NCBI RefSeq assembly: GCF_057098645.1
Contig: NZ_CM169472.1
Direction: 5' to 3' (one strand)
Length of the DNA: 64,000 nucleotides
In this document: piece after piece, positions 36,775 through 43,164 of the stretch
Layout: each line of letters begins with the position of its first letter
Numbering within the stretch: position 1 is the first letter of the stretch
The notes under the pieces: model-generated
The model's input: the letters and a program-made list of their open reading frames with translations, nothing else
What the model was told of the DNA's origin: nothing
Database searches by the model: none
Translations under genes and position numbers: made by a program

Positions 36775-38202
36775 TTATTTACGTACGGCCAGCATAGCGG
36801 TCAGTTTTTCAGCCCAGGCTTTGGTTTCCGGCAAATCCACCACCGGCTGGCTGTAGTGACCACGGTTGTCCGGGGCGACAGGCGTGGTGGCGTCGATAAT
36901 CAGCTTGTCGGTGATCCCCGCCGGGCTTGAGCCAGGGTCGAGTTCCAGCACGGACATATTCGGCAACTGCACCAAATCCCCTGCCGGATTTACTTTCGAG
37001 GAGAGCGCCCACATCACCTGCGGCAGGTTGAACGGGTCAACGTCTTCATCGACCATAATCACCATCTTTACGTAGCCCAGACCGTGCGGCGTGGTCATCG
37101 CACGCAGGCCCACCGCGCGGGCAAAGCCGCCGTAGCGTTTTTTGGTGGAGATAATCGCCAGCAGGCCGTGGGTGTACATGGCGTTTACCGCCTGCACTTC
37201 CGGGAACTCGGCTTTCAGTTGTTGATACAGCGGTACGCAGGTGGCTGGCCCCATCAGGTAGTCGATTTCGGTCCACGGCATGCCGAGGTACAGCGATTCG
37301 AAAATCGGCCTGGTGCGGTAAGAGACTTTATCGATGCGCACCACGGTCATGTTACGCCCGCCGGAGTAGTGTCCGGTAAACTCACCGAACGGCCCTTCGA
37401 TTTCGCGTTTACGGCTTTCGATGACCCCTTCGAGGATCACTTCTGAACCCCACGGCACATCAAAACCGGTCAGCGGGGCGGTGGCGATCGGGTACGGGCT
37501 TTCACGCAGCGCGCCTGCCATTTCATACTCAGACTGATCGTATTTCAGCGGCGTGGCCCCCATCAGCGTGATGATCGGATCGTTACCGAGCGTGATCGCA
37601 ATCGGCAGATCTTCACCGCGCTCTTCTGCTTTATGCAGATGCAGGGCGATATCGTGCATCGGTACCGGTTGCAGGCCAAGCTTACGCTTGCCCTTCACTT
37701 CCATGCGGTAGATGCCGACGTTCTGCTTGCCGAAGTTATCTGGGTCGAGCGGATCGCGGGAAACCACGCAGGCTTTGTCGAGATAGAAACCGCCATCGCC
37801 ATCATTTAAACGAAACAGCGGCAGGATATCGAACAGATTAATCTCGTCACCATCGACGGTGTTCTGCGCCCAGGCAGGATTGGCGCGGCGCTCCGGGACA
37901 ATCGGGAAGTTATCCCAGCGGCGGATAAACTCATCAATCTGTTTTTTAACCGGCGTGTTTGGCGGCAGGCCGAGGGAAATCGCGTGGTTCTGCCAGGAAC
38001 CGATGGTATTCATCGCCACGCGGGCATCGGTAAAGCCGCGAATATTATCAAACCACAGCGCGGGCGCGCCGTCGCCGATACGCCCGGTGGCGTTAGCTGC
38101 TGCTGCCAGATCCGGCTCAGCGTTCATTTCTTCGCTGATTTTCAGTAACTGGCCGTGGTCATCAAGCGCCTGTAAAAAGCTGCGTAAATCATCAAATGCC
38201 AT
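36775..38202 (-). CDS. UbiD-family (prFMN-dependent) decarboxylase, EcdC/BsdC-like
   Basis: 475-aa ORF with UbiD-family architecture; 1-nt overlap with the upstream UbiX-like gene. Confidence 0.88.
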   Translation of the reverse strand: MAFDDLRSFLQALDDHGQLLKISEEMNAEPDLAAAANATGRIGDGAPALWFDNIRGFTDARVAMNTIGSWQNHAISLGLPPNTPVKKQIDEFIRRWDNFPIVPERRANPAWAQNTVDGDEINLFDILPLFRLNDGDGGFYLDKACVVSRDPLDPDNFGKQNVGIYRMEVKGKRKLGLQPVPMHDIALHLHKAEERGEDLPIAITLGNDPIITLMGATPLKYDQSEYEMAGALRESPYPIATAPLTGFDVPWGSEVILEGVIESRKREIEGPFGEFTGHYSGGRNMTVVRIDKVSYRTRPIFESLYLGMPWTEIDYLMGPATCVPLYQQLKAEFPEVQAVNAMYTHGLLAIISTKKRYGGFARAVGLRAMTTPHGLGYVKMVIMVDEDVDPFNLPQVMWALSSKVNPAGDLVQLPNMSVLELDPGSSPAGITDKLIIDATTPVAPDNRGHYSQPVVDLPETKAWAEKLTAMLAVRK

Positions 38203-38795
38203 TATTCATTCTCCTGAGAAAAATTCCGGACCTGCGGCAATCCTTGCCAGCGCCTGGCGTGGGGATGTTCGAAGCCAAATTGATCCAGCACGCGGGCTAC
38301 CACATGGTGGACAATGTCATCTACCGTTTCGGGATGGTTATAAAAGGCAGGCATCGGCGGCACCATCGCCACGCCCATGCGTGAAAGTGCGAGCATATTT
38401 TCGAGATGGATGGTGCTAAGCGGCATTTCACGCGGCACCAGCACCAGTTTGCGGCCTTCTTTGAGCACGACGTCCGCCGCGCGCCCTACCAGGCCATCGG
38501 CGTAACCAGCGCGGATACCGGCGAGCGTTTTCATACTGCACGGAATAACGATCATGCCGTCGGTACGAAAGGAACCTGAGGAGATGGTCGCCGCCTGATC
38601 CGCCGGGTTATGGCTGAAGTCAGCGAGGGCAGCAACATCGCGGGCGCTGTAAGGCGTTTCCAGTTCAATGGTGGTTTTCGCCCACTTCGACATCACCAGA
38701 TGAGTCTCGACATTCGGCATCTCCCGCAGCGCTTGCAGTAATGCCACACCAAGAGGCGCACCGGTAGCCCCTGTCATCCCGACGATCAGTTTCAT
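38202..38795 (-). CDS. UbiX/Pad1-family flavin prenyltransferase, EcdB/BsdB-like
   Basis: 197-aa ORF; N-terminal MKLIVGMTGATGA flavoprotein motif. Confidence 0.88.
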   Translation of the reverse strand: MKLIVGMTGATGAPLGVALLQALREMPNVETHLVMSKWAKTTIELETPYSARDVAALADFSHNPADQAATISSGSFRTDGMIVIPCSMKTLAGIRAGYADGLVGRAADVVLKEGRKLVLVPREMPLSTIHLENMLALSRMGVAMVPPMPAFYNHPETVDDIVHHVVARVLDQFGFEHPHARRWQGLPQVRNFSQENE

Positions 38796-38812
38796 TGCTT
38801 ACTCTCTTAATT

Positions 38813-38826
38813 GTTCGTATACGAAC
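38813..38826. promoter_or_regulatory. perfect 14-bp palindrome GTTCGTATACGAAC, candidate operator
   Basis: Lies 18 nt upstream of the UbiX-like start codon in the divergent region shared with the MarR-type gene. Confidence 0.4.
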
Positions 38827-38908
38827 ATTATTATTAAAATACGCCTCTGTTCTCATTGCGGCAAGCACTGAAAAGTAACAACATCCCCTTCGTCACTGAA
38901 AAACCGCT

Positions 38909-39349
38909 ATGATAGCGGCAGATAGTTTGCCCGGAGTTTACATGGCGTTACGAAATAAAGCGTTCCATCAGTTACGACAGCTTTTTCAGCAGCACACGGC
39001 TCGCTGGCAGCACGAGTTACCTGACCTGACCAAACCACAGTATGCGGTGATGCGCGCCATTGCTGATAAGCCTGGTATCGAACAGGTGGCACTGATAGAA
39101 GCAGCAGTCAGCACCAAAGCAACGTTGGCAGAAATGTTGGCAAGAATGGAGAATCGTGGCTTAGTCAGACGTGAACATGATGCCGCTGACAAGCGGCGTC
39201 GCTTTGTCTGGCTGACTGCCGAAGGAGAAAAGATACTTGCTGCGGCGATACCGATTGGTGACAGCGTGGATGAGGAATTTTTGGGGCGTTTGAGTGCAGA
39301 AGAGCAGGAGCTGTTTGTGCAGCTGGTGCGCAAGATGATGAACACATAG
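38909..39349 (+). CDS. MarR/SlyA-family transcriptional regulator
   Basis: 146-aa ORF with winged-helix region; alternative start at Met-12 (38942) cannot be excluded. Confidence 0.85.
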   Translation: MIAADSLPGVYMALRNKAFHQLRQLFQQHTARWQHELPDLTKPQYAVMRAIADKPGIEQVALIEAAVSTKATLAEMLARMENRGLVRREHDAADKRRRFVWLTAEGEKILAAAIPIGDSVDEEFLGRLSAEEQELFVQLVRKMMNT

Positions 39350-39468: not shown

Positions 39469-40461
39469 TTATTCGCGGAACAGCGCTTCGATATTCAGCC
39501 CCTGCGTTTGCAGGATTTCGCGCAAACGGCGCAGGCCTTCAACCTGAATCTGGCGAACACGTTCACGGGTGAGGCCAATTTCACGACCTACATCTTCCAG
39601 TGTTGCCGCTTCGTACCCCAGCAAACCGAATCGACGTGCCAGCACTTCACGCTGTTTGGCGTTCAGCTCGAACAGCCATTTGACGATGCTCTGCTTCATA
39701 TCGTCATCTTGCGTGGTATCTTCCGGACCGTTCTCTTTTTCATCGGCCAGGATGTCCAGCAACGCTTTTTCGGAATCACCACCCAGCGGGGTGTCTACCG
39801 AGGTAATGCGCTCGTTAAGACGAAGCATACGGCTGACGTCATCAACTGGCTTATCCAGTTGCTCTGCGATCTCTTCCGCACTTGGTTCATGGTCCAGCTT
39901 ATGGGACAACTCACGTGCGGTTCGCAGGTAAACGTTCAGCTCCTTTACGATGTGAATCGGCAAACGAATAGTACGGGTTTGGTTCATAATCGCCCGTTCA
40001 ATCGTCTGGCGAATCCACCAGGTTGCGTATGTTGAGAAGCGGAAACCACGTTCCGGGTCAAACTTCTCTACCGCGCGGATCAGCCCCAGGTTGCCCTCTT
40101 CGATAAGGTCCAGCAACGCCAGACCACGATTGCCATAACGGCGGGCAATTTTTACCACCAGACGCAAGTTACTCTCGATCATCCGGCGGCGAGAGGCGAC
40201 ATCTCCACGCAGTGCGCGACGCGCAAAATAAACTTCTTCTTCGGCCGTTAACAGTGGTGAATAACCAATCTCACCAAGGTAAAGCTGAGTCGCGTCCAAC
40301 ACACGCTGTGTGGCTCCCTGCGATAACAGTTCCTCTTCGGCCAAATCGTTATCACTGGGTTCCTCTTCTACTAAGGCCTTTTCGTCAAAAACCTCAACTC
40401 CGTTCTCATCAAATTCCGCATCTTCATTTAAATCATGAACTTTCAGCGTATTCTGACTCAT
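39469..40461 (-). CDS. rpoS: RNA polymerase sigma factor RpoS (sigma-38)
   Basis: 330 aa from [21 protein letters not shown]; sigma-70 family regions 2-4. Track ORF includes 12 extra N-terminal codons. Confidence 0.95.
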
Positions 40462-40523
40462 AAGGTGGCTCCTACCCGTGATCCCTTGACGGAACATTCA
40501 AGCAAAAGCCTGGTTCCGCCGAT

Positions 40524-41663
40524 TTATCGCTGCGGCAAATAACGCAGCGGGTTTACGGATTTCCCCTTGTAACGAATTTCAAAATGCAAGCGTGTTGAAC
40601 TGGTTCCGGTGCTACCCATGGTTGCTATTTTTTGCCCCGCCTTCACTTCTTGTTGTTCCCGGACCAGCATTGTGTCGTTATGGGCGTAGGCACTCAGGTA
40701 ATCATCATTATGTTTGATGATAATCAGATTACCGTAGCCGCGCAGCGCGTTACCGGCATAAACAACGCGGCCATCTGCGGTCGCGATAATTGCCTGTCCT
40801 TTGCTGCCTGCAATATCAATCCCCTTGTTGCCCCCCTCAGAAGCGCCAAAGGTTTCGATCACTTTGCCCTCAGTCGGCCAGCGCCAGGTGGAGATAGGCG
40901 TACTGGTTGATGTACTGCTGACAGTCGGCTCGGTTGTGCTTGCTGTTGGTACCGTTACAGGCGCTGTGACCGTGGTCGCAGTTGGCTTGTTGTTCGGCAA
41001 CATTTTGTTAGCACTCTGTTCACCCGAAGACTCAGAATACGTAATTGTCGGTTGCGACGCAACAGCAACGGTGGAATTTTGTGCAGGCTTGATCACAACT
41101 CCTTGCTCTGCTGCGTCGGCCTGGGTAATGGCATTTCCGCCAGTGATTGGCGTACCGGAAGCATTACCCACCTGCAAGGTCTGACCAACGTTCAGCGCGT
41201 ATGGTGCCTGAATATTGTTGCGCTGAGCAAGGTCACGGAAATCGTTGCCAGTAATCCAGGCGATATAGAAAAGCGTGTCGCCTTTTTTCACGGTATAGGT
41301 ACTGCCGCTATAACTGCCTTTCGGAATGTTCCCATACTGACGGTTATAGACGATGCGTCCGTTTTCCATCTGTACCGGCTGCTGAGCTACTGGCTGCACT
41401 GGCTGGATTTGCGGTTGTTGAGTGGCCTGAATTTGTGGCTGCTGTACCGGCTGAATTTGCGGTTGCTGGGCTGTAGACGTCGTCCCCATTTTCGGCGGCG
41501 GCGTAATCAACATACCAGAATTGGTATTTGCAGGCGCATTGCCATTAACGGAGCTGACCGGTGCCGGTGGATTTGAAGTGTCAGAACAGCCTGCCAGCCA
41601 TAGCGAAACCAGTGACAAAGCCGCAATGCGGCGAACGGTGAATTTTGGGCTTCCCGCGCTCAT
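40524..41663 (-). CDS. nlpD: murein hydrolase activator lipoprotein NlpD (LysM + M23-like)
   Basis: 379-aa ORF; lipobox LAGC, Gln/Pro-rich QQPQIQ repeats, LysM ([14 protein letters not shown]), C-terminal LytM domain. Confidence 0.93.
41024..41052 (-). promoter_or_regulatory. candidate sigma70 promoter inside nlpD for rpoS
   Basis: Minus strand TTGCGT-17 nt-TATTCT, ~555 nt upstream of rpoS ATG; consistent with the known rpoS promoter inside nlpD giving a long 5' UTR. Exact hexamers are my reading. Confidence 0.4.
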
Positions 41664-41802
41664 TTATCCCCCAGGAAAAATTGGTTAATAACCAGTGACA
41701 TAATTACCGTGCAAGGCACCATACTGAACACTGGAAAAGATGTTCACGATACGCTGACCTGCGGCAAAATAACCAGGAAAAATCCAGGTATTTCCTCACG
41801 TT

Positions 41803-43164
<1,362 letters not shown>

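Follow-up and report, generated by a model that had tools for sequence, protein, structure and literature searches.

Gene Organization

In the window (the whole 64-kb stretch of DNA analysed), pcm (41803-42429), nlpD (40524-41663) and rpoS (39469-40461) lie in the order pcm, nlpD, rpoS on the minus strand. The nlpD product of 379 aa carries a LysM domain (residues 123-165) and a Peptidase_M23 domain (residues 279-372), and the rpoS coding sequence, with its annotated start at 40461, encodes 330 aa beginning MSQNTLK. The mechanically called rpoS ORF reaches an in-frame ATG 36 nt further upstream, giving 342 aa, and this extension (40461-40497, minus strand) is the Shine-Dalgarno (SD)/inhibitory-stem region. 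The nlpD start also varies between annotations (41618-41663, minus strand): RefSeq/PGAP gives a gene of 1095 nt in O145 and other recent E. coli against 1140 nt in the K-12 annotation, the shorter version beginning at a TTG codon 45 nt downstream and dropping the positively charged N-region of the lipoprotein signal peptide.

Downstream of rpoS, the variable rpoS-mutS region (38202-39349) holds a MarR-family gene (38909-39349, plus strand) and a gene for a UbiX-like hydroxyarylic-acid decarboxylase subunit B (38202-38795, minus strand) at the position where K-12 carries ygbN/ygbM. In O145 RM9872 an internal stop interrupts the gene for decarboxylase subunit C, which is annotated there as a pseudogene. 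Further along the window, the stretch 59778-59934 (minus strand) strongly matches the sok antitoxin RNA in Rfam (RF01794, 98 bits, E = 5e-21); it lies between a cysH-like ORF (60057-60944) and a cas3-like ORF (57341-59698), and no Hok-like ORF was found near it among ORFs of at least 40 aa. Collinearity with O145 RM9872, a genome otherwise identical to the window, is lost in the CRISPR-Cas I-E region (~55000-59700). The distance between nlpD and the cas3-like ORF is about 1.57 kb greater here than in O145, where an IS3 is located between a truncated casA and cas5e, and the cas3 ORF is 785 aa in the window versus 888 aa annotated in O145.

Position and Strength of the Promoter Motif

A pattern search located TTGCGT-N17-TATTCT inside nlpD on the minus strand, at 41034-41062, as a single occurrence in the 64-kb window. 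This bears out the hexamer pair named in the original prediction, which had placed it at 41024-41052, an interval of the right length but 10 nt too low. The offset in those earlier numbers is a constant 10 nt for the motif and 10-12 nt for the rest. In corrected coordinates, the -35 hexamer TTGCGT runs from 41062 to 41057 and overlaps nlpD codons V201-A202-S203, the 17-nt spacer CGCAACCGACAATTACG occupies 41040-41056, and the -10 hexamer TATTCT runs from 41039 to 41034, where it forms codons Y209-S210. The whole element sits in the inter-domain linker of NlpD, in codons 201-210, or 201-213 when the predicted +1 at 41027 is included.

The motif fits a -10 of the form TAnnnT, a -35 starting with TTG and a spacer of 17 ± 1 nt. 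Scored against TTGACA/TATAAT, however, it matches at three of six and four of six positions, and this total of 7/12 is weak and does not stand out from chance: the nlpD sense strand alone has seven sites that score as well, and the window has ~860 on both strands. The exact pattern occurred once in each of two of 100 shuffles, and a fully specified 12-base pattern is rare, as any such pattern would be. A sigma-70 consensus scan of 40300-41900 called no promoter-like site, this one included, and thus neither supports nor opposes a 7/12 promoter. The element cannot be recognised from its consensus score alone, and since that score is ordinary, its identity must rest on position, experiment and conservation. 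The first identification drew on prior knowledge of where the rpoS promoter lies and not on the strength of the match.

Transfer of K-12 Coordinates and Mapped Transcription Starts

The window is E. coli DNA. Of 5426 complete E. coli genomes, 5421 contain its 1.3-kb nlpD-rpoS stretch, and the copy in E. coli O145 RM9872 is 100% identical. Between a point upstream of the promoter and the rpoS ATG, a span of 700 nt, the window differs from MG1655 (NC_000913.3) by four substitutions and no indels. Identity is complete from about -110 to +300, promoter included, and the four leader substitutions all fall downstream of +300. Because there are no indels, published K-12 coordinates carry over base for base. 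The promoter 60-mer was present in 5417 of the 5426 complete genomes, about a third of them (1985 of 5417) in the 95-99% identity band. In three variant 60-mers that were sampled (one 98.2% and two 98.3% matches) the hexamers and spacer were unchanged; all three carried a synonymous G to A change (GAG to GAA) at 41031 (minus strand), position -4 in the discriminator, and one also differed at about +11.

SMRT-Cappable-seq, which selects 5'-triphosphate ends and reads whole transcripts, reported in MG1655 a reverse-strand transcript that spans 2868117 to 2866509 and contains no gene other than b2741 (rpoS); its start at NC_000913.3:2868117 had 677 TSS reads in M9 and 121 in rich medium (PMC6131387). 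This start precedes the A of the ATG (2867551) by 566 nt, compared to the ~555 nt expected in the original prediction, and by the indel-free alignment would place the +1 of the monocistronic rpoS mRNA at 41027 (minus strand). That nucleotide lies 7 nt past the last T of TATTCT, which sets the hexamers at the canonical positions -35 to -30 and -12 to -7. The Mendoza-Vargas 2009 supplement gives, from 454 reads, a start at -565 that is labelled rpoSp, "Known sigma 70", and is 2 nt away from the known one, with the -10 box written as CGTATTCT / attaCGTATTCTgagt (PMC2760140), the same box as TATTCT here. Published starts scatter over 41026-41028, and the start nucleotide is a T, which is unusual.

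The original prediction had put the start at ~41015. The mapped start at 41027 is 12 nt off this value and so is not far from it, and comparison with the mapped rpoS starts placed them near the motif. A full-text literature search by the expected genome coordinates returned unrelated papers only, and a usable rpoSp TSS entry was not found in the Cappable-seq supplement (PMC4782308), the Conway 2014 supplements or the available part of the Kim 2012 TSS table.

The rpoS Leader and CRP-Like Sites

Transcription from 41027 would give a 5' leader of 566 nt (40462-41027, minus strand), most of which doubles as the 3' half of the nlpD coding sequence. Reviews describe the major rpoS promoter as lying within nlpD and preceding a 567-nt leader (PMC10948607, PMC10957080, PMC2676305), and the original prediction of a long, sRNA-regulated leader arising in nlpD agrees with them. 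The region of pairing with the sRNAs DsrA, RprA and ArcZ lies at 40557-40586 (minus strand), matching the target in the Kim 2012 supplement in sequence and position; within it the DsrA/ArcZ target GAAATTCGTTACAAGGGGAAATCC spans 40580-40557, equivalent to -119 to -96, as in K-12. The SD-proximal arm of the inhibitory hairpin, GGGATCACGGGTAGGAG, lies at 40469-40485 (minus strand) and pairs with the sRNA site in the minimum free energy fold, in which the sRNA-pairing region pairs with the SD and start-codon region. The z-score of this fold is only -1.6, so the leader fold by itself is weak evidence. No Rfam family was found in the leader or promoter, either at gathering thresholds across the whole window or at E <= 1 across 40400-41200.

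On either side of the promoter lies a CRP-like sequence, both on the minus strand. The upstream one, TGTGATCAAGCCTGCA (41082-41097), is centred at -62.5 with three mismatches to TGTGA-N6-TCACA, and its TGTGA half is conserved only in Escherichia and Citrobacter. The downstream one, TGCGACCACGGTCACA (40965-40980), is centred at +55.5 with one mismatch, and its half-sites are conserved around a variable middle in most of 22 Enterobacteriaceae genera. Sites with three or fewer mismatches occur at 2.5 per kb in the window. For the rpoS promoter, a pair of CRP sites whose roles may oppose each other has been reported, without coordinates (PMC5711951). The CRP-like sequences here are candidates for those two sites. 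The published CRP site centres at rpoSp are, we assume, -62.5 and +55.5.

Conservation Across Enterobacterales

Conservation was assessed on 80 rpoS loci collected from one-genome-per-species contigs. The 14-nt stretch ATTACGTATTCTGA (41045-41032), which contains the -10 hexamer, was invariant in 22 Enterobacteriaceae genera, synonymous sites included, as were the last six spacer nucleotides, ATTACG; at the -35, GTTGC was conserved across the same genera. The spacer was a constant 17 nt in every Enterobacterales locus examined. No synonymous change was seen in the four codons ATT ACG TAT TCT (4/4), compared to a background of 41 invariant codons among 225 comparable ones in nlpD (18%), and the block is the second-longest run of synonymously frozen codons. 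Around it the linker is otherwise variable and poorly conserved, and neighbouring codons vary freely. In nlpD plus the leader, ATTACGTATTCTGA is the third-longest invariant run, behind two known leader elements, with 23 nt at the sRNA-pairing site (40586-40564) and 17 nt at the SD-proximal stem (40485-40469). This ranks the -10 block in the top three for conservation in the nlpD-rpoS region across Enterobacteriaceae.

The chance of four invariant codons at a pre-specified position is 0.18^4, about 0.001. A run of at least four synonymously invariant codons somewhere in nlpD, however, arose in 16% of shuffles, so that the conservation is significant only at a pre-specified position, and it was dropped as stand-alone evidence.

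Beyond Enterobacteriaceae, GTTG with the 17-nt spacer was kept in Erwiniaceae, Yersiniaceae, Pectobacteriaceae and Hafniaceae. The motif GTTG(C/A)..-17 nt-..TATTCT, 534-587 nt before rpoS, persists in Erwinia, Pantoea, Serratia, Yersinia, Pectobacterium, Brenneria, Rahnella, Hafnia and Edwardsiella, though the encoded residues differ; in Yersinia and Serratia, GCGTATTCTG and the 17-nt spacing are retained while the surrounding amino acids differ. Providencia and one Photorhabdus carry TATCCT instead of TATTCT. A simple motif search of the Vibrio, Aeromonas and Alteromonadales loci found no counterpart.

Downstream of the predicted +1, synonymous invariance in the 22 genera extends over 41010-41024 (minus strand), in the codons GGT GAA (+4 to +9) and AGT GCT (+13 to +18). 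This pattern suggests that the initially transcribed region, or an operator overlapping it, is under further constraint.

Identity of the Promoter and Alternative Explanations

Taken as a whole, the site is almost certainly rpoSp, the major sigma-70-type promoter of the E. coli stress sigma factor gene rpoS, located in the linker-coding part of nlpD. The original assignment of the motif to rpoS holds in that the hexamers match the experimentally mapped major promoter, by TSS data and by identity with K-12. The evidence for it is the sequence and position of the site, its identity with K-12, its coincidence with published 5' ends and a conservation beyond coding need. Its promoter activity, sigma factor and regulators would, by analogy, be those described in the literature.

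In the most probable mechanism, which is already established, RNA polymerase holoenzyme would recognise TTGCGT and TATTCT, 17 nt apart, and initiate at 41027, giving a monocistronic rpoS mRNA that begins with 566 nt of leader. Folding of the final ~120 nt of this leader would occlude the ribosome-binding site, and pairing of DsrA, RprA and ArcZ with the upstream arm would open it. The weak hexamers may leave room for regulators, with CRP-like sites at -62.5 and +55.5 as candidates.

It might be argued that the hexamers are a chance match, that the conservation reflects protein selection on an I-T-Y-S linker motif of NlpD, and that rpoS starts elsewhere. The motif is indeed weak and common (7/12, with seven equal sites in nlpD), and a 14-residue stretch is conserved as amino acids in Enterobacteriaceae. 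Two independent 5'-end datasets nevertheless put the primary start 5-7 nt past TATTCT, and these mapped ends are unlikely to be processing products because Cappable-seq picks triphosphate ends. The four codons are synonymously invariant beside neighbours that vary, in a surrounding linker that is poorly conserved, and Yersinia and Serratia keep GCGTATTCTG and the 17-nt spacing despite different amino acids. NlpD protein constraint alone was rejected on the synonymous-site invariance and the persistence of the DNA motif where amino acids differ, and the combined argument from chance and protein selection is exceedingly improbable. We give equally little credence to the idea that the conserved block serves mainly another purpose, for instance as an operator for a regulator or as an RNA element in the bicistronic transcript, with the promoter hexamers incidental. 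The synonymous constraint does exceed the hexamers, taking in ATTACG before the -10 and GGT GAA and AGT GCT at +4 to +18, but the invariant core falls exactly on the -10 element and the mapped +1, Rfam gave no family for the region, and operators overlapping a promoter are compatible with, and expected under, the promoter reading.

A further possibility is that rpoSp is real but minor, most rpoS mRNA being nlpD-rpoS or pcm-nlpD-rpoS read-through from promoters upstream of nlpD. SMRT-Cappable-seq in MG1655 listed operon variants starting at 2868828 (nlpD-rpoS) and 2869554 (pcm-nlpD-rpoS), corresponding to 41738 and 42464 in the window (minus strand), and further starts of rpoS-only transcripts at 2867808 (-257) and 2868283 (-732), corresponding to 40718 and 41193 (minus strand) (PMC6131387), and a bicistronic nlpD-rpoS transcript has been described (PMC10948607). 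The upstream promoters are, however, reported as low-level and exponential-phase, with the intragenic one major and stress-regulated (PMC10948607, PMC2676305). The start at 2868117, with its 677 M9 reads, belongs to an rpoS transcript listed with a defined 3' end (PMC6131387), and deletion of the intragenic promoter region of Y. pestis strongly lowered RpoS (PMC2736372). We regard a minor role as very unlikely.

With the site read as the major promoter rpoSp, it is a tentative possibility, somewhat short of an even chance, that the promoter and not protein function holds NlpD residues I207-T208-Y209-S210 constant (perhaps also G214-E215 and S217-A218), the constraint out to ~+18 marking a further operator or 5'-leader element. 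If true, regulation at the DNA level would be constraining a protein sequence, in a linker that evolves fast elsewhere.

Comparison With Known Systems

The rpoS promoter of Pseudomonas (P. fluorescens SBW25 and P. aeruginosa) is likewise embedded in nlpD and induced in stationary phase, whereas its -10 is GC-rich and unrelated and it is activated by PsrA (PMC11838912). No sequence homology of this promoter to the enterobacterial hexamers was detected. The Y. pestis rpoS promoter (Txn4) is also intragenic in nlpD, about 547 bp upstream of rpoS. Primer extension was used to map it, and deleting it lowers RpoS (PMC2736372). Other Yersinia species carry TTGATT-17-TATTCT at the homologous place. 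The Yersinia -35 is TTGATT compared to TTGCGT here, and there are differences in spacer sequence, in the NlpD residues encoded and in the leader, which is shorter by about 20 nt.

E. coli K-12 rpoSp has the same sequence from upstream of the -35 through +1, the same start and the same -10 box as the site in the window, and the leaders align without indels. The host is not K-12, and the leader in the window has four single-base differences, whereas the promoter has none. rpoSp is already known, a textbook promoter mapped since 1995, the mapping being credited in PMC10948607 to Lange, Fischer & Hengge-Aronis (1995). Nothing known about it changes with the present locus, where, as in K-12, rpoSp marks the start of one of the best-studied bacterial regulatory leaders.
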